NCBI GenBank assembly: GCA_039621445.1
Contig: CP154954.1
Location: 30,880,395 to 30,944,394 of the forward strand
From: Euglena gracilis
Taxonomy: Eukaryota
Reading direction: 5' to 3'
DNA length: 64,000 nucleotides
Every line of letters begins with the position of its first letter. The stretch's first letter is position 1. The position numbers were made by a program, and so were the translations under genes. Below the pieces are notes generated by a model. The model was not told the DNA's origin and ran no database searches. It was given only the letters and a program-made list of their open reading frames with translations. This document shows, piece after piece, positions 18,344 through 58,886 of this stretch.

Positions 18344-21300
18344 ATCCCAAACGGTTTCGCATCTTCTGGATGTCCGAAAAAAAGCGCATTTTAGGTGTAT
18401 CACAGGTACACCACAGGGTGTACGCTTGGCAACTCTCCACCCTCCCTCCTTGCATGCAAATTTAACAACACTGGCCCCGGCGCGCGGTGCATGAGTTCCA
18501 TGTCTTGGTGTCTCCCCTTGATGTAGGGGTGGGGGGAATAGGGCGCCTGGGAATATACTCGATACCTACCAAGCGGGAGTGGGGCAGTGCTCCCATGATG
18601 TTGGACACAGGACCAGCAGCCCCTATCCGCTTCTGCACATCAAAGTGGCGTGGCTCTTTTCATTGGAATTCTGGGATTCCCTGGGTTGAATATGAATAAC
18701 TCGCAACGTTGAAATGCAAGCATTCAAGATTTGGAAGGTGAAGAGGAGGAGGATCCACTTCCCCCTTAGCACCATGACCTTGCCCAGCACGCACAAAATG
18801 GAGAATTGATATCTGACACCTTTTCATGTGCAACAATAAAATGTACAATTTACAGTTCATGGCAACAATACAAAGTCCAACAATAAAACATTTGGCTTTC
18901 GTCAAGTAAGTAAAATTCGCACCAAACCATCAAGCACTTTGAATTCACCACCAGAGCAACACGCTGATGACCCTTCAGGCCAAGAGGCTCCTTTTCAAGA
19001 CCCGGGGGGAGGGGCAGGGATGGATGGGCAGCCTTGGGGGGGGTCCGCCCCCCCCCCCCCCGACACGGGGGGGTTGGACCCCCCCGCCTCGAAACTGAAG
19101 GGGCCCGGGGTAATTTTTGGTTTCATGGAACGGCAAAGGACCAAGAAAAATTTTTGGGCTGGAAACGGGCCAAAACTGGTCAAAAATCCCTGATTTTTCG
19201 TATAAATCCAAAAATGGTAAGTTTTTGAAAATTCTTGAACACTTTTTATGTGGAAAAACCAAAAAAAAAATCGTGGGACATGCTCAAAAAAATGGAAAAG
19301 GCATCTTTTGCTCATTTGGCGGCGCACAGCGCCGGAAGAAAATTTTTCGCTATTTTTGGAACCTGGCAAAGGGGGGCGGGTGGGGGGTCCGGACCTGCCA
19401 CCTGCCTCAAAACCGAAAACCGAAGGGCTTCCCATCCATCCCTGGGGAAGGGAGGCTGCCCTCTAAAGTTCGGGCCATCTGAAGGAATTTTCAAAAATAT
19501 ATTTCTGGCGCTTTGCACGAGAACCCATACCCAATCCCCCAGGCATGCGCGCTCTGGGGGGGGGAATTAAAAAAAAAGGCTGGTCCCATATGGTGCAAAT
19601 GCAGGCATGAACAAAACAGCATATGAGTTTAACTGCCATCCATTGTGCGACGATGTGTGTCAAACAGAAATGCCCTTTTCTCGTTAAGGGCCTGTATCTA
19701 TGTCCATGTCAATGGAGATATATTGTCTTTATGTGTATGTGGTTTAATTTGACGGCAGGTGGGCCCCACGGGGCAGTCCCACTGATTAAAATTTAACCCA
19801 GGTGCTTGTAAATGGGGGGAGGGTCCCGAATGGTTGCAGTGTTGTTGCCGCCCTGGTGGCAAACTGCGTCCGCGTCCCAGTGCCTTCCCCGTCACAATTT
19901 GCAGGGGTGTACAGCAAACACCTATACAGTCAACCGATGCCCAGAAACTCTTTTTGAGGCGTAATACTTAGAACTTTCTGGAGGGTGAAATACAAAACGT
20001 CTGCACCAATAGACCAAAAGAAACCTCGGTGAACAAAAAAAATCAGTATTTTATGCCATGTTTTTTTCTACACTTGTGACCTCTGTCACTTGTAGAAGAA
20101 CAAAAAATGACTTGAAAGAAAGATTGGGTCATATAAAATTTAAATCTCACAGGACGAACTGGACCATTTCCGGGGGAAGGGGTCAAAATTTCCAAAGGAG
20201 GTATACCTCCCTTGGCCAATGCCCATCTTAGATCACACCGCCCAGGGGGTTGCAAATGGTGGAGGGGCAAACCTGAAAGAGTCACGCCCTTCAAACAATG
20301 TCAGGAGAGAATGGACAGGCTGGGTCCATCCCTGCAGCGTAACACACCAGAGGGGGGAGGTAAGATGTAAACAGCAATATAAACACGAAGGGGACAGGAG
20401 CCCTGACATCCCTTGCCCTCCACCTCAGCAGAGCAAACCATCAATCCTCTTACCACAGCAATATGATTAGCCATGATAAGTTCTATGATATGTGCAACTG
20501 CAACACCCCGCAGTGAGGATATTGAACGGGGATGGTGCCTTGAAAGCCAGTGAGAAGCAAAATGTGTGTATGTGTGTGTGGGTGTGTGGGCAGGCGGGCA
20601 TGGGTGTGTGCGTGGGCGTGTGAGTGGGTGCGTGCATGCATATGTATTTGGAAATGTTCAGTGAAAAAAACCTGTAAACAAACAGGGGGTTTCTTAAGAA
20701 CCTGGGGGGGGGGTCCAGCAGGCTGGAAAAAGGTGCTGGCTAGAACCCCTGGGGGGAGGTTGGCGGGGGGGCGGGGGCGGGTCGGACAGCTGGCAGGCCG
20801 AAATTTTTTCGGTCCAGCGGCTTTGCCAGGCTGCCCCTAACTTTATGTAAGGGGACCCTGGGCTCAAGAAAACCTCGGGTAACAAATCTTCAGAAAAGGA
20901 ATGCCCTGAAATGGAAAAGGATTTCTAGCAAATGGTTTGCAATTTGCCAAGGAATAAAGCCCCCCAAAACAAGTTGTTGAGAAAAAGACAGTGACCTCCC
21001 CGAATATAAGAAACCAGGTTTTGTGTAGTGCTGAGCCCTTTGCGTGCCTGATGATGCCATGGCGCAACAGATGTTTGAAGCCTCTGGCTACCAGGGCGGA
21101 TCTTCAGCCCGACCTGGCGGCCGGAGGCCCGGCCCCGGCGCGACCGGTGGCCCAGCCCGGCCCGGCTCAGGCGCACAACTGGCCCTGGCAGTTTATGCGG
21201 GGCGATGGAGGGTCCCAAGGGGCTTTATTTTACGTCCCCGGTGATTTCCTTTGATTCCCGAACATTTTGGAGATATTTTGAATTTCGATTTTTTTGAACC

Positions 21301-28996: not shown

Positions 28997-31462
28997 CAGG
29001 GGTTATTTTTTTTAAGACCTTTAAAAAAGCCTTAAGTTTTTTGGCCAAAACGCCTTAAAAACGTTCAAGAACCTTAAAAGAAAATCATTTGGCAAATTTT
29101 TTGAAATTCAAGCAGAAAATGAGCTTGCAAAATCTGGGCAAAACAAGCCAACTCCAGGGGAAAAAAGAATTTCTGGCATCGCTGGAACATTCTCTACCCA
29201 CCCAAACTCGAAAAAACGAGGTTTACGAATTTTTCGTTTTTGGATGGATTTTGGACGTTTGATGCCGGGTGGACTTCCCTTGGAAAACAGACGCCTTAAA
29301 ATTTTGAAAAATGCCTTTGGGAACCTTAAAACCCTTAAAACCCGCCTTAAAAAACCTTGAAAATCTGAAAATTTACGCCTTAAAGCCAGGGCGGTCCTTA
29401 AGCAAAAAAAATTCTGTCCCAATACACTTCAACCGAAAAATAAGGATTTTGGTCGGGGAACTTTTTTGAAAATTACTTTGAAAAATGAACCCAAAATACA
29501 TCGTTTTTTGATGGAAAACCACATTTTCACCAAAAAAAAAAAACTCCAAAATTTTAGGGTTGAAAATTGTTAGTTATTAGGAGGGGGATCAAAAAAATGC
29601 AGGTCAAAAAATAGGACCAAATTTTGGAGCATTCGAATTTTACTGAGAGTTTTTCTCTTTGGGAATTTTTTGGATTTTCAATGGCATTTTTTTGCTTCAA
29701 AAACCTCTCAAAGTCAAAATTTTGAGAAATGTTGAAATTTTGGAAGGTGTGAAAAAAAAATGGGGTTTGCGGGGTTTTGGGGGGGGATCCCCATTTCGGG
29801 TCCCAAAATAGGTCAAAAAATTTCGGGGTACAAAAATTGGTGCTCCCGGAAATACGGGAAGAGGTGGGGGGGGGGGGGGCAGGGTTGTATGGGAATCTCC
29901 GAGGGGGGGGGACCCCTTCTGAAACTGGGGGGGGGGACCCCTCCCATCTCCAGTTTTCGGTCGCCGAAAATTTCGGCCGCTTTTTGGGGGGTCAAAAGGT
30001 CAATTTTTCTGAAATTTCTCAAAAATGGTGGAGAATCAAAAGAAATGACTAATACCTAAATTGAAGCCCTTAAAAAGCACTATCTAACAGTATATTGATT
30101 TTCTGACAACTCTCCACCTGTCCCGATTTATGGTCATTTTTGGCCATTTTGCCAAAATTTCATGTTTAGCCTCAAAAAAAGTCCTAAAGTGCACTCCCAG
30201 CGCGATTTTTTTTTTGCCTCCGCAGAGGAGGAGGGGGGGACACCCTTCCGAAACTGGGGGGGGTGGGAGGACCCCCCCCCCTACCACCTTACCCCCCCTT
30301 CCAAAAATCCAAAATCCGCTGGTACTTTCGGCCAATTGGCCTGACTGTTTGTCACTTTTTTGGCCACCATTTTGCCAAGAGTTAACCGAAATGACCCAAA
30401 ATTGCCAAAAATTTGGCCAAAGAAGTTTGACCAAATTTTGGCCAACTTTGACCGTCTTTTGTTGCAACATGTAAAATGTACAACTCACCAACATACAACA
30501 TTGACTGTTTGATGTTTCAGTGAATGCAGTGTAGTTTCCTATTCAGATTGTTCAGTGGTATTCTTCTTCTGTTGTAGTGATCTGTTCAAAAATTATTTTG
30601 TTGGGTTGAGGAAGCAGAAAACCGCTTCTTTGCATTCTTCTGTTTTTTTTTTTCACAGGGTTTCCCCCATCATCTCCAAATGACCCAGTACTTTCGGCCA
30701 GACCTCTTCCAGGAACCTCAAAAAAAAGCCCTTTTTTTGGAAGCGGTTTTCCGCTTCCTCTTCCGTTTACAGAGCGTCAAAATTTTTGGGCAATTTACAC
30801 AATGTGCAAGGGAGGGGGTTGATCAATGACTAAGTGATTGTTTGGGCTCGTTGCCAACTTCCAGGGGAAGAGGGGAGAGGTGTGTATGGTCTTTTTCGGG
30901 GCAGGCCAGGGCAGAACGGGAAGGCCTGGTGGGGGGGGTCGAGCCCCCCCCAACCGGGAGGTTGGGGGGGCGAGCCTGTTTTGGGAAAAATGAGCGCGAA
31001 ATACATGATTTTTTGATGGAAAACCACATTTTTTCACAAAAAATTTTAACAATTTCAGGGTTAAATTTGGTATTTTTTAGGAGGGGGGGTGGAAAATAAC
31101 GAAGGTCAAAAAAAGTGGACCAAATTTTGGCACAGTCAGAATTTTACTGACAATTTTTCTCTTGGAAGTTTTTTTGGATTTTCAATGGCTTTTTTTTGCT
31201 TCTAAAAACTCTCAAAATGAATTGTTGAGAAAATTTTGAATCTTTGGAAGGTGGGGAAAAAATGGGGTTTTGAGGGGTTTTTGGGGGGACCTCCCAAAAT
31301 GGGTCAAAAAAAAAACACCCGGCGCCAAAAGCGCCGGAAAAATTTTTTCGGGTCCAAAAATTGGTGCTGGGGGGGGGGGCGGTCCTCAAGGGGGCGGTCC
31401 TTAACTAAAAAAAAAAAAATCCCGTCCCTTATGGACCGCCCTGCTTAAAGCAATACCCCCTG
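28997..31462. mobile_element. hAT-type MITE (outer element of a nest)
   Basis: CAGGGGTTATT...AATACCCCCTG; perfect TSD GTGCCTCC. Confidence 0.85.
29387..31443. mobile_element. hAT-type element nested in 28997-31462
   Basis: CAGGGCGGTCCTTAAG...CTTATGGACCGCCCTG; perfect TSD CTTAAAGC; related end at ~9312. Confidence 0.88.
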
Positions 31463-34024: not shown

Positions 34025-34342
34025 CATACAATTTTTTTACCGACCCCGGGGGGGGAGGGGGGGTCACTCCACTTTTTGAAAAACCAGTCAGTCACTTTTT
34101 TCAGGAAACCAGTCAGTCACTACCCCCCCGGGGGGGGGGGGGGTCGGCCACTCTGGAATCCAAAGGAAATTTGACCCAAAACATGCAAAAAAGGCCCAAA
34201 AAAATTTTCCGGCGCCTTCGGCGCCGGGTCACTTTAGTAATTTTTTGCCGACCCCCCCTCCCCAGGCGACCCCCCCTCCGAAAAAACCAGTCACCCACCC
34301 CCGGGGGGGGGGGGGGGGGGCCAGTGCTTAAAAAATTGTCTG
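34025..34342. mobile_element. hAT-type MITE, same family as 13377-13730
   Basis: Perfect 8-bp TSD CTTCGGAC. Confidence 0.9.
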
Positions 34343-35187: not shown

Positions 35188-35390
35188 TCACTTGAAGGGA
35201 TCGACCTGATCTTCCTCTTCGTTGTCCATGCGGTTCGCGACGCGGCGGTCCTTCTCCGCCCGGCTCTCGGCGTACTTCACCTCGATGGGGCGGTCCATCC
35301 CGGGCAGCTGCAGCATGTTGAGGCCCTGGATGGCTGCTGTGGCCTCCGCGGTGGAGGAGTAACGCACCATGCCGCTGCCGATGTTGCCCC
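35188..35390 (-). CDS. Exon: second half of RRM2; ends at TGA or splices onward
   Basis: GNIGSGMVRYSSTAEATAAIQGLNMLQLPGMDRPIEVKYAESRAEKDRR; strongly GC3-biased codons. Confidence 0.9.
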
Positions 35391-38300
35391 CTGAACACCG
35401 GGGGGGGGGGGGATGAAACCAGGCAGCTCAAAATAAGCAACGCAAAAATGGGCAAAACAGTGCAAAAAAAACATGCACATACGTTTAATGCAATTGCAAA
35501 AATGCAAAAAAAAATGCAAAATGAGAGGTCAAAATACACAAAATGAATGCAAAACCACGCATTTTCCAATACGAAAATAATAAATGATAATGACAATGAT
35601 AAAATATGCAACTATTGTTAGCTTGAACACCCCTCCTCCAGCTGAGCACGCATGGCATGGACCAGGGAAATGTATCTCCAGCCATTGCAGGTCAGAAATG
35701 ATATTTACAACTCTGTGCAGAGGAAGGAAGGGGAAACAAATTGGAGATTCAAAAAAACTACCAGATGGAAGGAATGGAGAATGCTGCAGCTCTGGTGCAA
35801 GACTGCTCATGGGCTCGGTGGCTCTTGGTTTCACTTTCGCTTAGGTGTTACCGCATCTCCAAAACCCCTGCCCTGCCCCCCCTCCCCACGAAATACTCCC
35901 AGATCTCACCGAATTCAAACAAATCACCCCTACTCTTTAATCCCTGAAACTTGGTTGAGAATCTTCCACCAACCCATTGCAGGAAATGGGAATAATTTAA
36001 ATCAACGCCTCTTTATTCGGCTGAGTGATCAGACACGTGAATCTTCAAGCAAGCAAGGCACCTGTCTCAGAGTCCTTGAACATCGTCAAGGAGTACACCT
36101 TCCCGTAGCGGGCGAACGTGGAGTGCAGCTCCGCGTACGACCAGGAGTCGGGCAGGTTGCAGACGTAGAGGTCGGACGACGGCCGGCTGGTCACCCCTTT
36201 GTCCTTGTCGTGGTCCGCCAGCTTCACCCGAATGAACCGGCCGCCCGCAGGGTGGCGGGGGCCATGCTGAGGGGCAGACAACTGCCCCCCCCCCCCGAGA
36301 AGCGGGTTTGGTATGGTGCGAACCCGGGTGAGGGTGGGGGGGTCGGGCAGGGCAGGGGGGTGGTTAGGAATGGGGACGTTCCTGCTTAATTTATTAGACA
36401 TTCCTAATTGATTTACCTGGCAGTCCGAAGCAAAGTTCACCACTGGTGTATCTATTTCTGATTCCAGGCACAGAATGGGGAGGAGGCACGGGACGGGGTT
36501 CCCCCTAGGCCGTTGATCGAACCTTGACCTGGGTGGATCTGCAGACCGCCATCCCTCGGGTCCTGCCCCCTTCAATCCAGGGACAACAATGTGGGGAAAC
36601 GCAGTGACCTCTGGCCTCCCTGGCTGTCATCGACCATCATTCCGTTCATCGCCACCACCGCAGCCTGGGCCATCCCTGGGAGGGGGCCAAAGGATCACAA
36701 CGCAGGGGGGGGGGGAAATTGATATCGGAGGCCTTCGGAAAAATTGCGGAAAAATTGCGGAAAAATTGCGGAAATTGCGGAAAAATTGCGGAAAAATTGA
36801 TATCGGGTATACACATTTCTGTCTGAGGGGACTTAGAAAATTTTCAATTGTGAGGTTCAGAACACCGCAACACCCACGTCGATGCAGGCGAGCACAAATC
36901 AACACGCTTGATGTTCTTTGCACAGGTGGGACGCACCCAATTCTGTAACCAGTGGTGCACCTGTGAGAAAAATTGGTAAACTGGGGGGGGAAAAACAACA
37001 AAACACAATAGAACACCTGTTGATCCATTTGAAGAATGGCTTGAACTCATTGCATCTTCCATCTTCGGTGGTGGGAAAAAAATTCTGCGGAAAAAAAATG
37101 GGAAAAAATTGCGGAAAAATTGCGGAAATTGCGGAAAAATTGCGGAAAATTGCGGAAAATTGCGGAAATTGCGGAAAATTGCGGAAATTGCGGAAAAATT
37201 GCGGATATCAATTTCCCCCCCCCCTGCACAACGTTGGGAAAAACCGTGATCCCACTGCACCACACGGAGGGGGGAAACACAACGATGTCATCACGTTAGT
37301 CTTTCCATCACTTTCTTTTTCACCAAGGGGTTAATAATGTCCCCGTCGACGGGAGGTACCAGGTTATTTTTTAAGGCGTCTTAAAAAAAATTAACCTTTA
37401 ACAGTCTTGGAAGCCTTAAAAAAGAACATTAAAAAATAAGTGGAGGGGGTGTCAAAATAAGTGGAGGGGGCACACCAGCAAAACAATTTTGTCCGGATAT
37501 CTTCCAACTACATTTCCTGTGTTCTCATTATTACCATGTGAAATTACAATTTGAGGGGAGTTTCCCACAAGAGTGTCTGCTCCAAACCCCCCAGGAACTA
37601 ATTGTCACGGTCCTTGGTGCCCCCTTTCCAGAGTCAAAATTGTAAATGCACTGTGAAATACCCAGAGAAGTGGGTGTAAAGACGCTTGGTTGATGAATTC
37701 ATCTCGCTGGTGCTCTGCTAGCTTTGCCAACGATTTCTGATTGATTGTGCTTGCCATACTCTCAAGAAACAGTGGCATTACACATTCTTGTTGGTCGTTT
37801 TTGTGGCAGTTCTTCCCACCAAGAAAGGGTGGTGCATACTTGGTTGAATCAGTAATCAACACATAAATCACACGTGACGAGAAACGCTGCACCAGGCTTG
37901 ATCCAACTGCCACGGAGGAGGGGGTTTAGAAATGCTCTGCTAGGTATAACCACCACCCCCTGGGGGCAAATGTCGGCACACAGGGTCCACGGGTCCAAAA
38001 AAAAAAAGGGGGTACTCCTTTTCAAGGCCTGGCACCTTCACCTTGCTCAGGGGTCAGGGTCTGAGTCTTGAGTCCCTTCGTCCCTGAGTCGCTTGTCCAG
38101 AGAGGTATCCCCCGGGACTGGGCACTGTCACACACACATTGCACACCCACACACACACCACTCACACACGCACACATGCATTCACACACGCAATGGACCT
38201 GATGTTGTGTATTGCACAAAGCCGATACCATCATGCCATTGTTGACTCAGTTCAGGGTGGAATTCCACTTCAAAAAAAATCAGACGTCTCCGGACCCCCC

Positions 38301-41300
38301 ACCCTCAAATGGGCTGCTATCCACCCATGTAAATAAAAAATGGCGCAAAAGTGGTGCATTTTTCTGGCAAGTTGTTAAAGACATTTCCGGCTTCGTCGGG
38401 TGTACGCTTTGGCCACTTCTGGCCGAGCCCACCTTGGAGTGGGGGGGGGGGGCAGTCACCGTGGTCAGCAATGGGATGGCTAGGGCTCTGGCCCTGCTTC
38501 CGGGCCACTCGGCAGCTCATCACCGTGCCGTGGGCGGAGAAGAGTTCCTTCAGCCCCTCCTTCGTGATGCGGTCGGGCAGGTTGGAGATGTAGAGGTTGG
38601 TCCCAGTGTTGAGCTCCTGGAGGCGGTACCCGGCCGCTGATATCTGGGCCTGAGGGCCCAGAACGGGAAGCCCAACGGGGAAGGGTGCGGTGTATGGCAC
38701 TGCAGGGGCAACTGGCAGTGGAGGCGGGCTGTAAACCGGGCCACTTGCTACGACGGGAGGTGGCGCTGCTGCAGCCAGTAGAGTGTCTCATAAAAAAAAA
38801 AATGGCATCAGGATGGCAAATTCCAAGTTTGCAACGTTGACCACCAGTGCACTTTTTATAACTTCTTAATTATTACACATGTTATCATTCTATTTTTATT
38901 CACAATTACACATAAAGCTAAATTGTTCGATTTAAACATGATTAAACATGTTGATTCTGAAAACCTGCTCCCATGCATTCCCCATGCATTGTAACATGCA
39001 ACCTATCACCCCCCTGGACCGACCATCAAACTTCCCCCCCCCCCAACAGATGTGCACCATTGCACCCCCATCCTCCTCCAATTAATCGATCCGAAAACGT
39101 GCATAAAAAGGAGAACATTGATGCGCAACCCAAAAAGGTAATTCCAATTGAAGCCGGTACCACAAAATCATTCTGGTCGGTTTTGAAGTACTGAATGGGG
39201 CACAATACTTGGCCAAATCACAAGAAATTCACAAGGGGATGTCATGAAAAAATATTTTAAAATAGATTGCGTGGTTTGTGATTTTGACACATTCACAATA
39301 AATGTGCCGAGGAGGTCAAAATTTGGTTCCTAAAAAAAAGTGCACATCCGTGCACTTATTGGGGAGGGGGTTACTGATAACACCAGAGAGGGAAACAACG
39401 CGAACATGAAAAATGTGCGAGACACACATGCAGCACTGGAAAAAAAACAGGTGAGCAACAATGGGCAGGAGGGAATACCACACAAACAACGCAACGACAG
39501 ATTCCAGAAATCAACAAATCCAAAATGCAGAAGACAATGTAAAAAGTTAGCTGGAGGACAGTTTTCCAGAAGCAAATTATCCAAGGTAGGTAAAACAGCA
39601 ACAGGAACAACAACATAGAAATATTTTCTGCCAGAATACAACTGAACCCACCTTGATAAACTCCCTCCGTTCATTGTTTATTTATTATTTTAATAATTCA
39701 ACAGAACTTAAGGATCCTCGGGATAGCTCCGCATTGCGCCACCGCTCTTTACCACATTAATGCCATTTTGGGACCCGTTTCTGAAAGTCTTTCACTACAG
39801 TTTCCGATTATTATTGAAGGAAGCGTACCATGTATTTTCTAACAATCAGTTGTGAATGGTCCTTCTCAAACACCAAGTCAGAAGTCTCTTTTTTTTTCAC
39901 TGTGGACCACCCCATGAGGCGGTTTAATTTCTTTCCACCATCAATAATGGCTAATTAACAATGTTCAGGGGGGGGGGGATGCGCTGGACGGCCCTCGGAA
40001 AAAATGCGCAAAAATGCGCAAAAAAATGCACAAAAATGCACAAAAAAAATGCACAAAAAAATGCGCTGAGTTTGTGACATTCCTGAGGGAAAAAGGACTT
40101 AGAAAAATTTCCAGCAGTAAACCCAAAATTAAACCAAAATCACCAAAAAGAGCTGAAATGAAGGCATTTTGGCCAAAAAATGCATGACCAAGGCGTCACT
40201 CTCCGTTCACCATAACCAACAATGTCAGCCATGGTTGCCCCTTACTTGTGACCAGGGGAGTGGGAGTCCCGCCTTGGTTACGTGTCAATGTGGGGTCTCT
40301 GAAACCCCTAGTGTCCTCATCGTCATTGGATGAGTACCCACACCTCATCACCCAAGGGTTTTTCTCTTGACGTGGGTCCCTTGGGTGGAAAAAAAGTGCG
40401 AAAATGGGTTCGTTGGTTACAGAAATGGGTCAGTTGAACGTGGGCAAAATTCGGTGAGCAATGTGATTTGGGTGGAAAATGTGCAAAAATGGCAAAATGT
40501 GCAAAATTGGGCAAAAAATGCGCAAAAAATGCGCAAAAAATGGAAAATGTGCAAAATTGGGCAAAAAAATGCGCAAAAAAAAATGCGCAAAAAATGGAAA
40601 ATGTGCAAAAACGGGGGGGAATGTGCAAAAAAAAAGTGCAAAAAATGCGCAAAAAATGCGCATTTTGAAAAATTGGCAAAAATGCGCAAAAAATGCGCAA
40701 AAATGCGGAAAAATGCGCAACGCATTTCCCCCCCTGCAATGTTAATAATATTAATAATTTAATTTCTGTCAGCCAGGCAACTCTGAACACCTGGAACAAC
40801 TTTTGGTTTTTTTTAAAAAAAATGCTGTTGCAACCACAGCTTGGGATAAAGCCTGCTGGAGCAAACATGTAGCCAAGAGACTCGTCGTCCCTCTCAGGAG
40901 CAACATGCTCTTCCTGAAGGGCGGTGGGGAGCGCCTGGAAGTTAACTTGCTTGGAAATATGAGTCACTCTGTGGTTGGAAGGACAGGCACTGTCGGAGCT
41001 GGGATGGAGAAAAGATTGGGGCTGGGCATTGATTGACCATCAACCGCACACGGATAATGACTTCATCGGAGGGAAGCGTTTCACAGTCGCGGAGAAAGTC
41101 CAAGTGAACTGATACAAAAATAAAAGAGCAGAAAACGTTGTTTTGGAGTGAATTTTTCCGGAATGGGGAAATGGGTAAATGAACGTCCACTCGGGAACGA
41201 TGGGAGGGGGCTGGGGCTGGGGGGGGACCCCGCTGAACAGGGTTCCCATCGGCCCAGGCGTTGCAGGGATGGGAGGGACCACAGTGGGGGCCACGGGGCC

Positions 41301-43616: not shown

Positions 43617-44026
43617 TTTTTTGACCCCAAAATTGACCCCCCAAAAGAGGGTCCCCCAGAGCTGCCCCCACCCCTGTCCCCCCCAGGGGGTGGGTTGGTG
43701 GGTGATTATGCTCTTGGGGGTCTCGGACCCCCCCCAGTGAAGTTCACCGGATATTCACCGGAGGGGGGAGGGGGGGGGTACCCTTGGCTATTTTTCACCG
43801 GTGAAGTTCACCAGTGAACTTCACCGCTTTGATCATCATCATCAAAGCGGTTAGGGGTGAAATTTTGATGGAAGAAATTTTGCTGTTTCTCCTCTCAAAA
43901 TAGTCATTTTGAGGTTGATGGCTCATGTATTTCCATCTAATTTAATGTAATTTCTGAAAACTAATCCAAAAATGCCATTTTCAGTTATTTTTGACCATTT
44001 TTGGCCAAAAAAAGTGCTCTTGTCCT

Positions 44027-44223
44027 GCCGTTTTGCATGGGTTTTCATGCAAAATTGCCATTTTCCGAGCATATGGGGTGTTTTATGACTCTTTTTGTGG
44101 CACTTTTGGTACATTTTATAGACATAGAGGTGACATAGAGGTGGAGGTAGAGGTAGAGGTGGTTGACATAGAGGTGGAGACCTTTGAACTCTACCTCTAC
44201 CTCTATGCAGCCCTGATGTACCC
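44027..44223 (+). repeat. Dispersed ~200-bp repeat, second copy at ~49315-49507
   Basis: Shared GTTTTGCATGGGTTTT...GAGGTAGAGGTGGTTGACATAGAGG...GCAGCCCTGATGTACC. Confidence 0.85.
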
Positions 44224-45412
44224 CCTTGCAAGCCTGGGCCGAAGCCCTCACCAGCTGTGGCTGGAAGCCGCCCATTCGAAGACCTCATGGGTTGTGGCCG
44301 AAGCCCTCCCGGGACGGTGGAGCTGGGTCCCCTCCCGTGTGCTGTGGCTGAAGCCCTCCCAAGCCGTGGCCGGCAGTCGACGACTCGAAGCCCTCAGGCG
44401 CTGTGGCCGAAGCCCGCCGGGGCGGTGTGGGCTGGGTCCTCCTCCCGGGCCTGTGGCCGAAACCCTCCCACTCGTAACCCCCTGCACCTGCGAGCCCCCT
44501 TCCCAGGACCCTCACCAGCCCCTGGACCCCCATCTCTGGACGGGCAAAAAAGAGAGACGGGAAAAAAAACGGGAGGAAAAAAATTCCAGAGATGACGCCC
44601 AAGGGGTATCTTTGGACTGTTCCGGGGGGGAACCCCTGCCAGAACGGCCCAAGGTGGTGCGGGTGCCTGCTGCTCCCCCGTGCTGCTGTAGGAGACCGAC
44701 CCCCCTAAGGGTCAGCCTTCGAACCCCGCCCCGCCCCCAACGAAGAAAAAAAAACGGACAGACAGAAAGACGGAGTCGAGATTGTGTTTGCCAAAAAAAT
44801 ACCCAGCGCCCTTTTGCCGAAGGCGGGTTTGGCTGCCTTGGGAAGCTTTTTAAGGAGGGAAGTGTGGGCGCTGGGAAGAAAATTAGGATTCCAACAGAAG
44901 AATTAGGATTTACGTAAAATTATGTCTGTGTTTTTGCTTGTAGTGGCACGCAGCATGTTCAGTTTGACTTTGGTGGTTCAGTTCTGGAAAGTGTCTTGAT
45001 TTGTGCCAGCGCTGGGAATTGGGAAGTGGGATTACCATGAAAAGTGCCAAGGAAAGTCCCAGGTGGGTGCCAGGCCCCCTGGGTGAATTGATGGCTCCCA
45101 GCCAGTGGCAGGGCCTGCAGGCGCCAGGGGCCAGCCACCAGGGGGTTGTGGGGGTTGTGAGGCCCACACCCCCAACAGCCCCATGGTTGCTGGGACAGAT
45201 GTCTTGGCCGAAAACTGCTGGGCTGGCTGAAAAACCTGTAAAGTCATCTGGGCTGGCCCCATGATTGGTGGGACAGATGACTCAGCCAAAAACTGCTGGG
45301 CTGGGTGAAAAAACTGCCCAGGCATCTGGGCTGGGACAGCTATCTCAGCCGAAACCGGCTGGGCTGGTTGAAAAACCTGCAGTTGGGCAGCTGGCTGTGT
45401 TGACCACGATTA

Positions 45413-46787: not shown

Positions 46788-49700
46788 TAAGAACCCTGCG
46801 TTAACAACAATGGTTCTGCCTGGGCTGTTAACGCAAAACTTTTTGTTCTGGCCCTGGGCTGCTGTCTGACGACACATAAATTTGCTGAAACCTGAAAAAT
46901 TTACTGGCCACATGCTAGCAGCTTTCATTCTTCGCATGACTATTTCCTTAATTATTGTGTTTTCAGCATTTTTTTCTCCCTCTGTTTCGCTTTCGTAAAC
47001 TGAGGGGTCTGGTTCATCATCACTGCTGTGCAGTGGAACCAGCTGTAAATTTTCTGGCCCTGCCACTGTGATGGGCCTTATGCATGTAATTGACCCCCTC
47101 TCTGAATCAGAATCAGATTCTGTTGTTTCTAAAAATTCTGAAGGCGAGAAAGTTTCAGCCTCAAAATTGATTTCTGCCACAGATTCCGTCATGATTCGCA
47201 ATGATGCCACAGGCCTCACCCCCCCCCCTATTCCCCCCCCCCAATTGGCTAGCTGGCCTCCAGGACAAGACCGGCCAATTTTGGCAAGGCCGCAAAAAGG
47301 GCTCAGAAAACCTCCAAAAATGTCCGTTTCCAAAATTTTAAAATTCGCCGGATAAGAAAAAACTATGCTCAAAAAATCAATAAATTTTGCACAGGGGGAA
47401 AAAAATTGGGGGTAGGGGTCCTCGAGCCCCCCCCCTAATTGTCCCCCCCCCTAATTGGCTGATTGGGGGTCTGAGGGAGCCCGGCCATTAGTCAAATAGG
47501 CGGGGGTGAGGGTCCTCGTGATAGGCACTAGCAAACTACGGCCGTGTGAGGCACACCCCAAGCAGGGGCCACGGCCTCGGTGACGCAGCGGGCTGGTGTG
47601 GAGGCTAGGTTGTCCACTTCGGGACCCCGGGACCCCCCTCCCCCCCCCTGTTCAGTTCACTTCGGAAGTGAACAGGGGGTCCCGAAACCCCCCCCCCCGT
47701 ATACCTGGATGTACCTGTTCACTTCAGGGAAAAAACCGAAAACCGGAACGACGGGCGAACACCGAAAAGGGCTCTTTTTCTATATCAGAAAAGAGGGGTC
47801 GGACACCGGTTCTGTCCTGAACCCGGCGTCCCGGACGTGACGCGTCCCGAACCCGGTCCTGAACAGGCGTCCTACCCCCCTTTTCTAAAATCAGCGTTTG
47901 AGAGACACCGCGTCCCCAACCTTCATCAAAGGACACTCCCAGGACCAATCTCCGACCATTAATCTGCAATGTTACGCTACTTTGGATTTCACCATTTTCC
48001 GACGATCGCGAGCTATCTCTGGCTGTGTCAGTCATTCAGGTACAAACTCACCCCTCGATCGAAAGCTCTTTTCATCAGACGACTAGTGATGACACCAAAT
48101 TTTGCCACGTCGCCTGGAGCTCTCATTTCCTGTCACTGGGAAATCCTAATTTCACAATCCTGGTACCCCCTGGATCCCTCAGACCATCAATTTGAAGACA
48201 CAAATCGTTTCTGTATGGTTCAGACTGCCTCTTGATCGAAACTGGATTGAAAATCACCACAAATTTCGACGAAGATTCTGGCCGATCCGACGATCGCGAG
48301 CGTATCTCGGGCTGCGTGCAACGTTAGGGTACCAAATTACCACTCGATCGAAAGCTCTTTTCAACAGACGACCAGCAGTGCCCATCAGATCTTTCCACGC
48401 TGCACAGTACTCTATTTCCAAATCTGGGGCAATTTTCACCAAATTTGGATATCCACCCTAGTGGTCCCCAAATGCCAAAATTCATTGTCCTAGATGGTTG
48501 AAACAGTCATACCAGGGCCTTAGGGCCACTTTTGGGCAGTTTTGGTGACATTTTTAGGAATGAAAACCGGACGCCGGGTTTTAGGACAGAACCGGCGTCC
48601 GGAAAACCCGTGGGGGGATGCCGGTTCTGTGCTGAACCCGACGTCTCAAACGCCGGTTTAAATAAAAAAATCGGCGCCTTCAGCGACGGACTCCCTCTCC
48701 CCCCCCTCTGTGAAGTCAACATGTCCAGTTCAGTTCGGAAGTGAACATGGGGGGTCGAGGACCCCCCCCATGTACCTGGGCTCCTGCGGTAAGGCTCTTG
48801 GGAGGGGAGTGTGTGCCGCGGACGAGCCTACAGCGGTAGGTAGCTGGCGCGTAGTACCAAGCTGAGTATCGCTCGAGTAGCTTGTTCGAGACCCAGGTCC
48901 TGCAATGTGAGTCCTGGTCGATCCCGTACCGGCAGAGGGCATAACGCGGGGATCGACCGGTGCACGCAACTGCTCGCGAGGACGTAGACGTTGATTGGCC
49001 GGATCTTGCGCATAGTTCCCTGCTTGCGGACTGCGGACGTGCCACGGCAAGTAATATGAGCTTCTGACCTGTGGCCGTGCAACAACCTACATCCAGCAGT
49101 ACAAAAGTGTCCAAAGCTCCTCTATCCCTCCATGTCACCTCTATGTCAAAACCAAAGGAAAATGACTCAATAAAGAAGAAAAAGAAAGAAGAAAGAATTT
49201 TTTTTGCAAGCAAAGGGGAAATACATGAAAAGTTTCAGAATTGCTCAATGTGGTCACATAACCGCGCCAACAACTTTCAAAACCACCAACCCACATGTTG
49301 TTTCTCATCCCCTCGCCGTTTTGCATGGGTTTTTATGCAAAATTGCCATTTTCTGAGCATATGGAGTGTTTTATGACCCTTTTTGTGGCACTTTTGGTAC
49401 ATTTTATAGACATAGAGGTCACATAGAGGAGGTAGAGGTAGAGGTGGTTGACATAGAGGTGGAGGCCTTTGAACTCTACCTCTACCTCTATGCAGCCCTG
49501 ATGTACCATCCCTTTCCTCCAGAGGTTCGGCAGCCACCCCCCCCCCTGGTGGTCGGAACCCCTCGACACGGCAAAATGGGGACCCCCCCCTGGTCAGCCA
49601 ATCCCCTCGGCGCGGTATGCCGAACCATGCCAATGTCCCTTTCTTTTCCTCACAGGGCTATGGATGCGGCAAGCAGTTCATCCACCGATGTTCAACCAGC

Positions 49701-50120: not shown

Positions 50121-51965
50121 TGTTTGTTTGGCTGGGGTTGCTGAAATTTACACAAATACTATCCCTATCTGATAATTCCCCCCCCCCCATGGAGCCAGAA
50201 ACCAGGTCGGGGAAAATTATCAACAAGTTTGTCATTTCCTCAGGTTTTTTCATGCCTGTCAAGGCTTGCTTGAAAGTTCATGGAAAGTCCCGGGGTCTTC
50301 GCCGCAGGTGAACCGGCAGGGCGGAAAGAGCCATTTTTCATGTCTCCTTTGCTTGACCGAATGTATTTTTTTTGGGGGGGGGATTATCAGACAGTTTGAC
50401 CGAATGTATTTTTGGGGGGGGGATTATCAGACAGTTGACCATTTCCAAAATTTCGGCCCAGAGTGGGGGGGGAATTACCCCCCCCCCCATATTGTCCCAC
50501 CAACCTCTCCCCAGGAGGCCCGACGGGACAATATGGGGGGGGGACAATATGGGGGTACCAAAGGAAATTTCATTGACCGAGCCAAAAAAACCCCTCGTCG
50601 GCCGGGCCGAGGGACAATATGGGGGGGGGACAATATGGGGGGGGGGGGGGGGGTATCCACCAGGGAAAATTCTCAAATAGGTATAGTATCAATCCTCTGC
50701 CTTGGACAATCATACAAATTGTGGCCCCGTCATTAATTTTTCTGCCAATAATCCTGCTCATAAAAATTGTGGCCCTGCCGTTTTTCTCCCCCTGAACACA
50801 ATCCTCTGCCCTGGATGAGGCTTTGGCAATGGCCCTTCAGCGTGGGGCACATATTCTCCCCCTAAGGTGTGGTGTTGACAGGACCAGGGCATCATTTGGG
50901 TTGCGTGCCTCCACCCTGCGGGGGGGGGGGGATGGGAATCCTGAAACCTTCTGGCGTCACATCAGTTTGATACAGAATTTTTTACAGTCCTTCTTCCCGG
51001 GGGGGGGGGCCTGGCCCGACCCCCCCGGGGGGAGGGGGTCGGGCCAGGTGTTTGTTTGGCTGGGGTTGCTGAAATTTACACAAATACTATCCCTATCTGA
51101 TAATTCCCCCCCCCATGGAGCCAGAAACCAGGTCGGGGAAAATTATCAACAAGTTTGTCATTTCCTCAGGTTTTTTCATGCCTGTCAAGGCTTCCTTGAA
51201 AGTTCATGGAAAGTCCCGGGGTCTTCGCCGCAGGTGAACCGGCAGGGCCATTTTTCATGTCTCCTTTGCTTGACCGAATGTATTTTTTTTGGGGGGGGGA
51301 TTATCAGACAGTTTGACCGAATGTATTTTTGAGGGGGGGATTATCAGACAGTTGACCATTTCCAAAATTTCGGCCCAGAGTGGGGGGGGAATTACCACCC
51401 CCCCCCCCATATTGTCCCACCAACCTCTCCCCAGGAGGCCCGACGGGACAATATGGGGGGGGGGACAATATGGGGGTACCAAAGGAAATTTCATTGACCG
51501 AGCCAAAAAAACCCCTCGTCGGCCGGGCCGAGGGACAATATGGGGGGGGGACAATATGGGGGGGGGGGGGTATCCACCAGGGAAAATTCTCAAATAGGTA
51601 TAGTATCAATCCTCTGCCTTGGACAATCATACAAATTGTGGCCCCGTCATTAATTTTTCTGCCAATAATCCTGCTCATAAAAATTGTGGCCCTGCCGTTT
51701 TTCTCCCCCTGAACACAATCCTCTGCCCTGGATGAGGCTTTGGCAATGGCCCTTCAGCGTGGGGCACATATTCTCCCCCTAAGGTGTGGTGTTGACAGGA
51801 CCAGGGCATCATTTGGGTTGCGTGCCTCCACCCTGCGGGGGGGGGGATGGGAATCCTGAAACCTTCTGGCGTCACATCAGTTTGATACAGAATTTTTTAC
51901 AATCCTTCTTCCCGGGGGGGGGGGCCTGGCCCGACCCCCCCGGGGGGAGGGGGTCGGGCCAGGTG
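50121..51965 (+). repeat. Near-identical tandem duplication, unit ~0.92 kb
   Basis: 50121-51050 is repeated at 51049-51965; differences are mostly homopolymer lengths plus one ~9-bp indel. Confidence 0.95.
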
Positions 51966-51999: not shown

Positions 52000-54900
52000 G
52001 TTTGATAAGAAAAAAAAAACCAAAACATTTTTCGAAATTTTGGCCGTTTTCCTCCCCCCTCCCCCGCCAGACGACAGGGTTCCTGCCCTGTGTTTGCAAG
52101 TGACGTCCTGTACAGAACAAAGAAGTTGTTCAAGTAGCTTATCGATGTTACAACGAGTTGATGGTAAGGTTGGATTGGCGAGCCTCCCCTTCTTCGCATC
52201 AATATGCTGAACTGCAGGCTTTTTTTTTTCAGTGGTCTTGGATTGGTTACGTTCGAAAAAAATTTTCTGCTGAAAATTCATGCGTTTTTTAAAGGCCAAA
52301 ACGGGGAATTTTTGTGGTTTGGCGGGGGCCAGCCCCCATTGGTATAGAAACCGGGGGGGGGGGGGACAGGGGGCGGCCCCCGAGATTTTTTTGCCCCCCC
52401 CGATAATTTGTTGACTCAAATTGTTTCGCACCCCCCCCGAAAAAAAGTTACCCTCCAAATTTTTTTGCAGTTTGTGAAAAAATTCTTTCAGATTAAGAAC
52501 CCAACTTTTCTTTGAACTTTTGGGTGTTTTTGCTGTTGGACATCGCTACCGTCTCGTCGCCTTTCGGGCGGCCAAACAAGCCCAAAACTCATGGGTTGGA
52601 GCAAAGCCGGCAGTAAAAAAAAAAGGGTTTTTTGGTTTTTTTGTGGTTTTTTTTAAAAAAGCAAAAAAAAAGGCCAGCGAGGGTTTGGGGGAAAATTTTT
52701 TGAAAATAATTTTGAAGAATTTCTTTAAATGGACACCCAAAAGCTGTAATGTTTGCATGTTTATGGAATCTTTATCCCTTTTAGAGCCCTTTTTCATGCC
52801 TGGCCGATATGAGGATGTTGTTTGGAGGTGCTTCGTGAAGTCGAAGGCCGATGGGAAATCGTACTACGTGGGTACTTGCAAGTGCCCACGGAGATGGTAG
52901 CGCCTATGTCAAATTTCCTTTTTTTTAAAAAAAAATAGTTTTTTGCCGTTTTTTTTTAAAAAAACACGTTTTTTGTTGTTGTTTTTTTTAATTAAAAACA
53001 CGCCAGCTCTGGGTTGGAGGGGAAAAATGTCTTCCTTTTTTTCATTTTGGGGTTGTTGTTTGTGAACATATCCACTGCCATCTCGCTTCCCTTTGGTGGA
53101 AACAGGAAACACATGTATCTTGACTAGGCTTGTGACGTTCAATTTTAAAAGAGCAAACCATTTCTGTTGATAAATTTGGCTCTTTTTGGGGAAGCTTTTT
53201 GGAAAATTGCACTACCGTCCAGCCGCCCTTTAGGCGGTAATCGATTTTTTTGTTCCATTCCGGGGGTGGGTTTTGGGAGGTAACCTCTTTTTCGCATTTT
53301 GCACTCGTTTGATATCCCAAAGCACAAAAGGCAACAGTCTTGCCGCCCGTTGGCAGCTTGAAAGCTTCCAAATTGTGATGGATTTGTGCCATGATGTCAA
53401 ACAATTGCCACATTTTATTTGTTTTGGCGGCAAAAGGAAAACAAAACACATACAACATTGGTGCAGGGGGTTATTTAGTCGTGGACCCCTGGTAGGGTGG
53501 GTGGGTTTGGCAGAGCTCCCCCCCCCGGGTCCCCCCATGAGGGAGTGGGATATACTTTTCGGCGCCGAAGGCACCAAAATTTTTTGAAAAAGTGCTATTT
53601 TTGGAATTTTTATGTTTATGGCCGGCGCTAACTTCGCTTTTGGCGCAGGATCTCCCCCCCCCCCCCCCCGAGAAAAAATTGTTTCAACACCACTGCCAGC
53701 CCCCCCCCCTCCCGAAAAAGAATCCTAGTCTCTCCACCTCCCACTGCACCGCGACTGGTCCTCCTCCTCCCCCCCCACTAAGCCGTTCATTCAGGAAAAT
53801 GCCTGCCACCGCATATCTTCCCAACTGCCTTGTTTTGAACTCGACCAATCGCTTCCCTGGCTTTTTTGACGATTTGCCTATTCCTGGCAGGATTGGATAA
53901 AAAGAACAAACACTGGCCAGAATTGTGTAAGAACGGAAAAACTGCCACCCATTTCTTTCGACCTGTCGGCGGCTTTCGCTGGCAGCCAAAAATTGCCAGA
54001 AAGCTCAAATCACAAAGTCGCGGGTGACAGCCAATCAGTTGGGACCCGCGATAGAGATTAGAAGCGGGTCAAATTATGAAGCTTCTTAAAATTTGTGTCT
54101 TTTTGCAAAACTTGAAGGGTTTTCCCCAATACTTGGCAAAGAAGGGATACTTTGGAATTGGATTTCATTGTTTTATCACCGCCTCTCCCTATACAACCTC
54201 TTTGCCTTCCACTCCTAGCCCCATTCCCAGGTTTGTTTTTTGTTCACATTCACAGTCACTCTCACAGGTTTCCCTCAAGTGTGATTGCTTCCTAAAGTGG
54301 GTTGGTTTGGAATTGTGGGTTGGTTTTGTCTTCAAGGTGTGCAAGAGAGTGTGAGAGATATGGTGAGAGAGAGGACGAGAGAGAAGTGAGAGTTTCATAC
54401 AAAATGGCAGATTTTTCGATTTTCACAAAAATTTCAGAAACCGCTAAAAAAAACGATCCTACGTGCCGGCTGGGGTAGGAGAAAAACCCTGGGTGAAAAA
54501 AAGGGAGTTGGCCTGAGCCAGCCCACCAACCCCCGGAGAAAGCGCAGGCCCCACCCCGGACACACCACCCCCCTTGCTGTCGGTGGTTATCCACGACGGC
54601 GAGCCCCCCCCCCCCCGGGCCCACGGCCCACCGGGACTCGCCGGTCGCGGAGGTGACCGGCGGCTTACAGGGGTGGGACCAGTAAAATGGTTAGCAGAGG
54701 TCGGCTCACTGACTCTGTCCTTCCGGGCGCGGTGGGGTCATGCTCTGATCTCCGGTTTGTGTGGCATTGGACGGGCTCCCTCTGCTACCATGGATGTAGG
54801 TTGTTGCCACCCGCCGTGGACAGCCAGAGGTCAGAAGCTTATACCACTCGTCGTGGCACGTCTGTAGGCGGGGAACGACACGCAAGATCCGGCCAAACAA

Positions 54901-56374: not shown

Positions 56375-57143
56375 CAGACTAGCCTGAAATCCGGTTCGTG
56401 ATTGTTCGTGATTGTTCGTGATTGTTCGTGATTGTTCGTGCTTCCAAAAAACCGCCCGGTTTTCTGTTTTCCTTGGCCAAATTGGTCATTCCTCTTGTAC
56501 TTTGGCCTCTTGTGCCTCCTTTAATTTAAATATTCAGGTCAATGGGGAAAGCAAAAGATCAACGAGGAGGTCACTGCAGCTTGGCGCAAATACACTTCAG
56601 CTCTTTTCAGTTCTCACAAAATCGACAGACGTGATGTATGCTGTAGCTTGGTTCTTTGGGCAACCACCATGAGCTAAAGTTTGGGTTTTCCCATCTTTTG
56701 ATGATTCTTGGCATCGACGAGACTGGTGAGGCTGAACGACCGTTCCACAGCGGCGGAGGGGACAATGCCAATGAACATCTTGCTAACAATATGGGAAGTA
56801 CAAAAACGAAGGACAGATCTCTATGACGATTTCACTTCCATCACTCCACCAAACTGAAAAAGGTGACAAAAACAGGGAAATCAAAACAAGACAGGTATGA
56901 CACCTGGGCAGCACCCTTTTGAGGAGTCATTTTGCCACCTCTCTTTCAAGATCTTTCTTCTTTGGTTGATTGAACGGCACCGTCCTTTTCAGAAGAAGAC
57001 ATTTCTGCAAAGGTGACGAAAAAATCCGGTTCGTGATTGTTCGTGATTGTTCGCGATTGTTCGTGATTTTGCCAAAGTCCCAAGTTCGTGCTGGTTCGTG
57101 ATTGTTCGTGATTGTTCGTGGCACGAACCGGTGAAAAACCCTG
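56375..57143. mobile_element. hAT-type MITE with (GTTCGTGATT)n subterminal arrays
   Basis: CAG...CTG; perfect TSD CTCTCTAC. Confidence 0.8.
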
Positions 57144-57727
57144 CTCTCTACACACCATGGACACCATCTCAAGGACTCCGCACCCTGTTGCCCACGGCTG
57201 AATTCCGCTGCACACTTCGTTGGTCCCTCGGAATGTCTCTCACACCAATGGAATCCGATCCCAACCTCTGTCCCAAATGCTTTGGACCATCAGATTTTCT
57301 CGGACACCACCTCGTTTGGTGCAAATCAAACTTCATTACCCGGCGGCACGGGGCGGTCCAAGATTTTCTGACAACCACGACACAGAAGGCAGGATTTACA
57401 GCCCGTAAAGAACAACGAGCTGATGACCGTTCCCGGCCAGGGGACATCTTCATTCCTCGCTTGGACAGTGATGGACCCGTTGCAGTGGATGTGACAATCC
57501 GCCACACCCTTGCGCAAAGTCATCCGCCGCGGAGTGCAGAGAGCCTTTCACACTGGCAAACACGTCAGGAGGCAGAAAAGCATGCCAAATATGACGCAAC
57601 GTGCCAACGACAGGGCTGGCGGTTGATGCCATTTGTCATGGATTGCTACGGGGGCATGGGACAAGAAGCGCGCTCCTTGATTGCCACCCTCCTCAAGGCC
57701 CTTCTGGGGCAGCGGGAGGGGTGGCAA
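57144..57727 (+). pseudogene. 3' fragment of a second CRE-like element (CCHC plus PD-(D/E)xK restriction-like endonuclease)
   Basis: CPKC..H..C, RRHGAV, RPGDI, VAVDVT, EAEKHAKY and PFVMDCYGG motifs; no RT attached. Confidence 0.88.
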
Positions 57728-58254
57728 ATTTTCTGGCTGAGAAAGCGGAATTGTATTTTTTAAGATTTTTGAATTTGTTGGGAACCCCCGACCCTCACGG
57801 CTGTGTTGCCCGGGGGGGGGGGGAGATTGGTTGGTTATCACGGATATTGTGATTCGGTTTGGCGGCTCGGCTCGGATGTTGTGTGGCTGACTTTGGGTTT
57901 GGAGATTGGAATTCCTGGTTGGATTTGTTGAGGGCTTTTGCAGGCCTTGCTTTTGTGGAGGATTCATTTGTGTTGGAAAAACCTGGGATTTGATTGTTTC
58001 CCAAAAAAGAAAACCGAGTTCGGATTTTGCAGACTTCGGTTTGGATTTTGAGAACTGTGATTTTCATGGAACATTCGAACTCGGGGGGAGCGGTGGACCC
58101 TCCTTAGTTCAGGCCCTGGTGTGTGGGCCATTTTCTGGGAGCCACGTGTTGCGGCTGAGGGCCAAACGGATGCCCTGTGATTTTTTGTTCATTTTTTTGG
58201 TGGGCCAAAGGCAATGGTTATGCCCCCGTGCTGGAGTGCCACATTACCTGCAAG

Positions 58255-58886
58255 CAGGGTTGGGCAATTAACCGTTATTTTTGGGGTCAAGCGATTAACC
58301 ATGGTTAACTGGGGGTCAACAAGCGATTAACCAATTTTCGATTAACTGTGCCTTTCCCTCGATTAATCTCGATTAACCGCCCTACCCTTGAGTAGTGTTG
58401 TGCACCTTGCCAAATTGGTGCCTGAAAACATCATCCCCAAACCAGAGCTTAGACTCTCATTCATTGGATGGATCATGAACCAAACAAACGAAAAAAATAA
58501 AAACCACACGGATCTCTGTTGCCGAGTCTAATGGGTCAGATAGCCAAGTTGGCGTAAATTCATTCGCACAAACATGAGTGCATCAACGGAGCAATCACGA
58601 AGGCGATTGCGCAAATCACTGGGGTCGGAGCTTCTTTCATCTGATGGCAATTACCACCCCTCCTCGAAGGGTTATGTTCGGTGTTGCAGTTGAAAATTGC
58701 CTCTTTTCCAAAAGGGAACTTCGATTAACCCACACAACGAGGTCTATCCCCCACCCGGTGTCTAAGTCCCCAAAGGGTAGAGAAATGTTCCCAAACCCAA
58801 GACATCTTTGATTTCTGCCAAAAAAAGGTCGATTAACTGGGGGGCCACAAGCGATTAACCGTTTTTCGATTAACCATCCAACCCTG
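58255..58886. mobile_element. hAT-type MITE with GATTAAC subterminal repeats
   Basis: CAGGGTTGG...CCAACCCTG; perfect TSD CCTGCAAG. Confidence 0.9.

Follow-up and report, generated by a model that had tools for sequence, protein, structure and literature searches.

What is the origin of the nonconventional (NC) introns of euglenids, and why do their splice sites lie at fixed distances from the ends of a terminal helix? The question is raised by a stretch of 64,000 nucleotides of Euglena gracilis (GCA_039621445.1, contig CP154954.1, positions 30,880,395 to 30,944,394 of the forward strand; hereafter the window, within which all coordinates are counted from the first letter). Here, a gene for a protein with two RNA recognition motifs (the RRM gene) is predicted to contain three NC introns (I1, I2 and I4), and the DNA around it carries inverted-repeat elements that begin with CA, end with TG and are flanked by target-site duplications (TSDs) of 8 bp. 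We consider it rather probable that elements of the CAG...CTG/8-bp-TSD build are pre-formed NC introns, and that decayed insertions of such elements account for many NC introns. Support is strongest in published intron tables, where perfect 8-nt repeats abut the CA...TG inverted-repeat cores of three lineage-restricted NC introns.

Splice spacers, published junctions and the 8-bp duplication

The presence of CAG and CTG at positions +4 to +6 and -8 to -6 of NC introns was described in 2014 and 2016, and the knock-in experiments of 2025 gave the code N3-CDG...CH'G-N5-6|R (PMC12501133). As reported there, splicing is abolished when the 5' spacer is made longer or shorter by 1 nt, the 3' spacer tolerates one additional nucleotide, and pairing adjoining the CDG/CH'G motif is required for NC splicing; moreover, splicing was obtained with fully artificial 50-bp inserts that combine CAG/CTG and spacers of 3 and 5 nt with arms that pair and an exon that starts with a purine (PMC12501133). 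The supplement of the same study considers sliding from -5 to +5 only. A preliminary description of the window had equated the 3+5 nt geometry with the length of an 8-bp TSD, and the arithmetic is correct, the spacers being those defined genetically for Euglena NC introns (PMC12501133). Since code-conforming artificial inserts do undergo splicing, an exonic CAG...CTG element with an 8-bp TSD and a purine at t6 (the bases of the duplication being numbered t1 to t8) fits the proven substrate, and an element that lies in an exon with its 8-bp TSD would be excised without a scar.

NC introns are recognised through a terminal helix, the outermost pairs of which are CAG/CTG; one cut falls 3 nt upstream of CAG and the other, with a purine after it, 5 nt downstream of CTG. 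On this basis, the transcript of an exonic insertion would read t1-5|t6-8-CAG...CTG-t1-5|t6-8; the 3/5 cuts would remove the element and exactly one copy of the TSD, and the reading frame would be restored whenever t6 is a purine. NC introns would then be, at least partly, old insertions of which the TSDs and interiors have since decayed, and the 3/5 geometry may owe its existence to the 8-bp TSD and not to chance.

Perfect repeats of this length are found at three published junctions, which the preliminary description does not cite. The gapC-4 intron of E. agilis (GTCCC|aac-cat...atg-gtccc|AAC; flanking identity 8/8) is limited to one strain, and its authors report eight-nucleotide direct repeats (PMC4770533); its core is bounded by CA...TG, with ~10 bp of inverted repeat. 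The same identity (8/8) and a perfect 10-bp inverted repeat characterise both tubB-12 of L. spirogyroides (TTCCT|aac-caggcc...ggcctg-ttcct|AAC), for which nine possible positions are stated in the published text, and tubB-13 of M. pyrum (ATCCC|tcc-catacctctg...cagaggtatg-atccc|TCC). At tubB positions 8, 12 and 13, unrelated inverted-repeat cores occupy one intron position across species, a pattern equally compatible with repeated insertion at a favoured target and with homology plus turnover.

The 8-mer identity was then counted by eye (small errors being possible) across the published tables. In the 2014 tables (27 N or N/I rows, seven near-duplicates dropped) 104 of 215 comparable positions were identical, and in the 2016 tables (54 rows, gapC-4 excluded; three hsp90-9 rows carry the 5' string of the hsp90-8 rows) 157 of 432, with position means of 1.5-4.2 of 8. 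At t1-t4, the positions without a described splice-site consensus, the 2014 rows matched in 44 of 107 cases vs ~30.5 expected from column frequencies, and in 36 of 99 vs ~28 once the two perfect rows were left out.

The published junctions also carry a signature at the remaining positions: a purine is found at intron +1 in 51/55 and at the exon start in 55/55 NC junctions, the last base is a pyrimidine in 49/55 exons and likewise in 49/55 introns, and the downstream exon has A at +2 (43/55) and C at +3 (30/55). Read as TSD positions, the two junctions share one dinucleotide, t5|t6, and t6-t8 of the downstream exon is R-A-C; such an exon start, together with Y|R at both junctions, would be expected from two copies of one palindromic target. 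Among the three perfect published TSDs T2, C4 and C8 are invariant (3/3) and A7 is present in two, and their common form (nTCC..AC) resembles the targets of hobo (8-bp TSD, motif GTNCGNAC) and of the P element (8-bp TSD, GTCCGGAC), the P-superfamily element 1360 having a 7-bp TSD (PMC3276498, Table 4). By our reasoning, with a palindromic GT....AC target CAG would be preceded by C and CTG followed by G, lengthening the helix; that spacer bases can sometimes pair is remarked by the authors who published NC introns.

Inverted-repeat elements and introns in the window

The window was scanned for CA...TG elements with terminal inverted repeats (TIRs) of at least 10/12 and TSDs of at least 7/8, which gave 11 matches vs 0-2 per shuffle (mean ~0.6; 20 shuffles). 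We count ten credible elements (seven with a perfect TSD and three at 7/8), close to the nine given in the preliminary description, and five of the ten start with CAGGG, a terminus that it had ascribed to several of them. Their inverted repeats measure 9-16 bp, and eight are 90-632 bp long, the other two reaching 2.1-2.5 kb. In five CA...TG pairs (10/12 terminal matches) the perfect flanking repeat was 8 bp, the length at which the spectrum peaks; flanking repeats of at least 7 bp were found in none of the 6771 pairs of the shuffled control. CDG...CHG ends are present in both orientations in 7/10 elements, and 9/20 element-orientations conform, as they stand, to the whole NC code. Three of the 11 scan matches were dropped as elements, one located inside a tandem array (45196-45328) and two inside repeat arrays (14430-14536 and 40493-40667). 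The region 14400-16500 is a dense array of short repeats, direct as well as inverted, composed of GCGCGCA and GCAAATGC words, and produced many false element calls.

Both orientations agree with the NC code in the MITEs (transposable elements of the miniature inverted-repeat type) at 58255-58886 (CAGGGTTGG...CCAACCCTG; perfect TSD CCTGCAAG) and 17804-18343 (CAGGC...GCCTG; perfect TSD ATCCCAAA), and in the 2.1-kb inverted-repeat element at 29387-31443 (CAGGGCGGTCC...GGACCGCCCTG; perfect TSD CTTAAAGC). The latter lies inside a 2.5-kb inverted-repeat element (28997-31462, CAGGGG...CCCCTG; perfect TSD GTGCCTCC), and the two form a nested CAGGG...CCCTG pair in which each member exceeds 2 kb and has its own perfect 8-bp TSD. 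The MITE at 52602-53011 (CAAAGC...GCTCTG; perfect TSD GGTTGGAG) departs from the CDG/CHG rule in both orientations. Just one two-copy 8-bp-TSD family was found within the window, consisting of the MITEs at 13377-13730 (CATAC...GTCTG; perfect TSD GTGTGCGG) and 34025-34342 (CATACAATTTTTT...AAAAAATTGTCTG; perfect TSD CTTCGGAC), which share 73% identity. The CATAC terminus of this family recurs in the tubB-13 core (CATACC...) and in the 3' arm of gapC-4; this could reflect one widespread family or chance. The MITEs with a TSD of 7/8 are those at 19015-19444 (CAGGGATGGATGGG...CCCATCCATCCCTG), 15324-15698 (CAGACTTTCATTTAG...CTAAATGAAAATCTG) and 2819-2908, the last of 90 bp, with a 16-bp perfect inverted repeat (CAGGGCAGAACGGGAA) and a partial relative at 30907-30955.

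The RRM gene (minus strand, 35188-41029) was the sole recognisable cellular gene in a Pfam scan of the window's open reading frames (ORFs; 283 stop-to-stop ORFs of at least 95 aa), the only families recovered being RRM_1 (two ORFs at this gene) and RVT_1. According to the predicted model, six exons join into an open frame of 807 nt and encode a 268-aa protein with two RRMs; the model is based on per-exon Pfam RRM_1 matches and on the continuity of the spliced frame, and its borders are predictions. Exon 1 (40977-41029; ATG at 41029) is speculative and was placed by frame continuity, its P/V/A-rich peptide running into exon 2 (38500-38770), which encodes a P-rich linker and the first 32 residues of RRM1 (RRM_1 positions 1-32, E 1.6e-6). 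Exon 3 (38199-38247, 49 nt) holds the RNP1 core of RRM1 (..DGIGFVQY..; motif scan and frame), exon 4 (36626-36675) contributes ..MAQAAVVAMNGMMVDD of RRM1 (frame), and exon 5 (36062-36242) holds the end of RRM1, a linker and the first half of RRM2 (RRM_1 positions 1-36, E 1.7e-4). The second half of RRM2 (35191-35427, found through smaller ORFs) belongs to exon 6 (35188-35390; RRM_1 positions 39-66, E 0.046), which ends with a TGA stop at 35190-35188. RRM1 is thus spread over four exons and has 71 residues (hand count) vs 70 in the Pfam model. A single intron from 38499 to ~36656/36698 was rejected, as RRM1 would be left without its RNP1 motif; the exon found by the motif scan (38199-38247) splits this stretch into an NC intron (I2) and a conventional one (I3). 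A protein database search with exon 2, covering longer proteins only, scored nothing and revealed no spliced product, and Rfam gave no match across the whole window.

The gene, as predicted from its sequence, mixes in euglenid-type nuclear DNA two spliceosomal GT-AG introns with three NC introns. The conventional ones, I3 (36676-38198, 1523 nt) and I5 (35391-36061, 671 nt), were absent from the preliminary description; they carry a C-rich and a poly-C tract, respectively, before the terminal CAG, and C-rich tracts have been reported in introns of E. gracilis. The three NC introns that it had proposed were recovered by the gene model with the pattern NNN-CA(G/C)...CTG-NNNNN, each followed by a purine (A, A and G), and two of them with CAGGG/CCCTG ends: I1 (38771-40976, 2206 nt) reads AAC-CACAGA...CTACTG-GCTGC, I2 (38248-38499, 252 nt) AAG-CAGGGC...ACCCTG-AACTG and I4 (36243-36625, 383 nt) AGC-CAGGGA...ACCCTG-CGGGC. 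GT/GC-AG borders are missing from all three (I1 AA..GC, I2 AA..TG, I4 AG..GC), and I2 and I4 satisfy the full published NC code in frame. Within the scanned range the 3' sites are unique and the 5' sites are not, since in-frame alternatives that fit a loose code exist at 38505 and 38493 for I2 and at 36616 and 36607 for I4; the sites adopted were chosen because they give the best CAGGG/CCCTG pairing and the correct RRM length. I1 is the weakest of the three, its upstream exon being speculative (an ATG and frame continuity) and its CAC departing from the published CDG rule. The complementarity of the intron ends, described before for all three, varies among them: I1 has a long imperfect terminal inverted repeat (14/17 bases paired with one gap, equalled by 6 of 1155 CTG-ending 20-mers), I4 pairs 8/9 bases and then decays (equalled by 55 of 1155), and I2 pairs over just 5 bp.

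A second family of CAG(G)n...(C)nCTG inverted-repeat elements, ended by poly-G and poly-C, has flanking repeats of 7 bp in all three copies and an interior made of 10-11-bp tandem repeats (AAAATGCGC and AAATTGCGG types). Two copies are situated in introns of the RRM gene, one nested in I1 (39966-40736; 7-bp repeat CAATGTT, with the internal tandem repeats) and one inside I3 (36703-37226; 7-bp direct repeat CACAACG); the third, at 892-1629 (7-bp repeat TTGAACC), is 85-95% identical to the copy in I1.

Other repeats complete the picture of the window. A 954-codon open frame at 59940-62804 (+; 59940-62801 in the Pfam scan) contains an RVT_1 domain (E 2.8e-11), and the long ORFs at 62513-63637 (+) and 57047-57763 (+) appear, by eye, to belong to this retroelement or to a related one. 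Two long ORFs (43958-44200 and 49357-49600, +) share a near-identical start (..YGVFYD.FCGTFGTFYRHRG.IE..VEVEVVDIEVE.FELYLYLYAALMY) and represent a dispersed repeat, and the near-identical ORFs at 50341-50688 and 51258-51605, ~0.9 kb apart, indicate a direct duplication of ~900 bp.

A proposed insertion origin and its rivals

The window gives no direct link between a MITE and an intron, and several observations weigh against an origin of NC introns from 8-bp-TSD insertions. No MITE was found inside a recognisable exon of the 64-kb window, and the removal of each of 13 elements together with one TSD copy produced no convincing ORF across the join. The similarity of introns to MITE families, which the preliminary description proposed to test genome-wide, was not seen within the window: I2 and I4 have no relatives and no MITE similarity, I1 matched only its nested 7-bp-repeat element (39966-40736), and I2 and I4 resemble each other solely in poly-C and terminal 8-mers. 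The expected excess of identity between the 8-mer before CAG and that after CTG fared likewise on the three introns, with 4/8, 3/8 and 4/8 identical positions in I1, I2 and I4, values equalled by shifted registers in 9, 14 and 8 of 60 trials, as befits the decayed TSDs described there; the summed 11/24 has P(>=11) of 0.021 at p=0.25 and of 0.096 with the known Y|R junction bias, and the TSD remnants are not significant. CAC of I1 lacks the G of the published CDG rule (its other sequence rules being satisfied), end pairing in I2 is limited to CAGGG/CCCTG and a fold of its truncated ends leaves them unpaired, and three of the ten 8-bp-TSD elements break the CDG/CHG rule. In the published tables, the counted rows include orthologous introns and are thus not independent, a C-rich composition is common to both flanks, and the authors of gapC-4 attribute its 8-nt repeat to double-strand-break repair (PMC4770533). 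Given the 7-bp family, the 8-bp arithmetic does not fit every local CAG...CTG element, a 7-bp TSD leaving a frameshift under the 3/5 rule. Finally, no transposase domain was detected in the 283 ORFs (64 kb being a small sample). A 10-nt motif taken from one end of the published gapC-4 intron had three window matches at no more than one mismatch vs 4.9 expected.

The autonomous partner of the elements was also sought in the nested pair, where neither 28997-31462 nor 29387-31443 contains a Pfam domain and no transposase was found in 40 of the 46 ORFs of 35-94 aa that overlap 28997-31462, the six edge ORFs lying outside the scan. As no transposase was found, the hAT label reflects only TSD length and termini, and the superfamily assignment is a putative one made from these two sequence features. 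CAG(G/A)G-like ends are taken here as the hAT terminal consensus. The P superfamily also has 8-bp TSDs and its member 1360 one of 7 bp, and the superfamily thus stays open.

The idea that MITEs are pre-formed introns stands on the arithmetic, on the element-orientations that follow the code (9/20), on the splicing of artificial inserts and on the published 8/8 repeats, and is held back by the lack of an exonic MITE, of I2/I4 similarity and of significant TSD remnants in the window. I1, I2 and I4 may themselves have arisen from MITE insertions.

The rival that survives best is coincidence: the 3/5 offsets would reflect an endonuclease that measures from the helix end, CAG...CTG termini would merely be common to hAT-like ends and good helix ends, and MITEs and NC introns would have separate histories. 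It draws on the same shortage of intron-MITE similarity and of exonic MITEs in 64 kb, on the non-significant TSD remnants at I1, I2 and I4, and on the 7-bp-repeat family, which carries CAG...CTG ends too; furthermore, a good part of the junction similarity of the older introns lies at t5-t8, where the splice-site consensus (Y|R, A, C) could cause it. However, identity is also in excess at t1-t4 (44/107 vs ~30.5, hand count), in three published NC introns the CA...TG inverted-repeat cores are exactly abutted by perfect 8-nt repeats, and one of these 8/8 introns (gapC-4) is polymorphic within its species. Transposon TSDs range from 2 to 11 bp and a priori about one TSD length in six to eight would equal 8, which we count against a chance agreement; on balance, we regard coincidence as unlikely.

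Still less probable is an origin by double-strand-break repair, in which staggered breaks would be filled in to give short direct repeats and inverted repeats would be selected later. This was proposed by the gapC-4 authors, who cite Daphnia intron gains and strong break-rejoining in euglenids (PMC4770533), but gapC-4, although young, is already bounded by CA...TG and equipped with ~10 bp of inverted repeat, the repeat is exactly 8 nt in three independent cases, and similarly built elements with 8-bp repeats lie outside genes in the window, which is the mark of transposition and not of break repair. The reverse direction, with NC introns as the primary mobile units (e.g., through circular RNA/DNA copies) and the intergenic elements as dispersed intron copies, is similarly improbable, for although NC introns are released as full-length circles (PMC11282704) and no transposase was found in the window ORF scans, a TSD fixed at 8 bp, at a target resembling GT..AC, is typical of integration by a DDE transposase, and an autonomous copy is hardly to be expected in as little as 64 kb.

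Relation to known systems and consequences

Compared with the euglenid NC introns described before (Milanowski 2014, 2016; Nomura 2025), I2 and I4 share every sequence rule and I1 all but the G of CAG, the boundaries being in our case predicted from RRM homology and reading frame. A MITE origin of NC introns, which the preliminary description rightly took to have been suggested earlier, was proposed in 2014 (PMC3935182), at a time when, according to that text, euglenids had yielded no transposable element, and was taken up again later, including in a 2024 review (PMC11282704). In these accounts, as in ours, the inverted repeats are transposon TIRs and the junction repeats are TSD-like; the review names CAG/CTG as the terminal inverted repeats, and neither text gives the length of the duplication or the superfamily (PMC3935182, PMC11282704). 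Each component has been published before, namely the MITE hypothesis, spacers of 3 and 5 nt and a single 8-nt repeat, and what we add are actual CAG...CTG elements with 8-bp TSDs and the 3+5=8 identity. A full-text literature search, to which subscription papers and figures may form exceptions, found no statement that 3+5 equals the 8-bp TSD of hAT type, and the full-text search likewise found no description of euglenid CAG...CTG 8-bp-TSD element families.

Introners of Micromonas and other algae are likewise short inverted-repeat DNAs that create an intron, the exon being restored when the element and one TSD copy are removed (PMC11282704). They use the spliceosome, the element supplying one splice site and a 3-nt TSD the second (PMC11282704), whereas the NC cuts that we propose would both fall inside TSD copies, at fixed distances from a helix, and would be made by a non-spliceosomal machinery. 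Many near-identical intronic copies, by which introners are recognised, were not seen within the 64-kb window. With non-autonomous hAT and P elements the window elements share the 8-bp TSD and CAG(G/A)G-like termini; no transposase was found for them in the window.

A broader reading, to which we give about an even chance, is that euglenid NC splicing is matched to one transposon class (hAT or P-like). Exonic insertions with a purine at t6 would be erased without a scar, which would explain why ~70% of Euglena introns are NC introns. The palindromic integration target (GT....AC) would in turn account for the R-A-C exon start, the Y|R junctions and the occasional pairing of spacer bases, and 7-bp elements would cause frameshifts and be confined to non-coding DNA, as may be the case for the three copies in the window. 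If the cut geometry does mirror the TSD of a transposon, the donor class of NC introns would be named, and the question of origin would become a countable one (through an 8-nt repeat mode in young introns and through families shared with intergenic elements); the excision machinery could be viewed as an RNA-level defence by which a single transposon class is neutralised. The matter bears on how euglenids gained hundreds of thousands of non-spliceosomal introns and on what removes them, and the same rule may provide portable, scarless introns for synthetic biology in Euglena.

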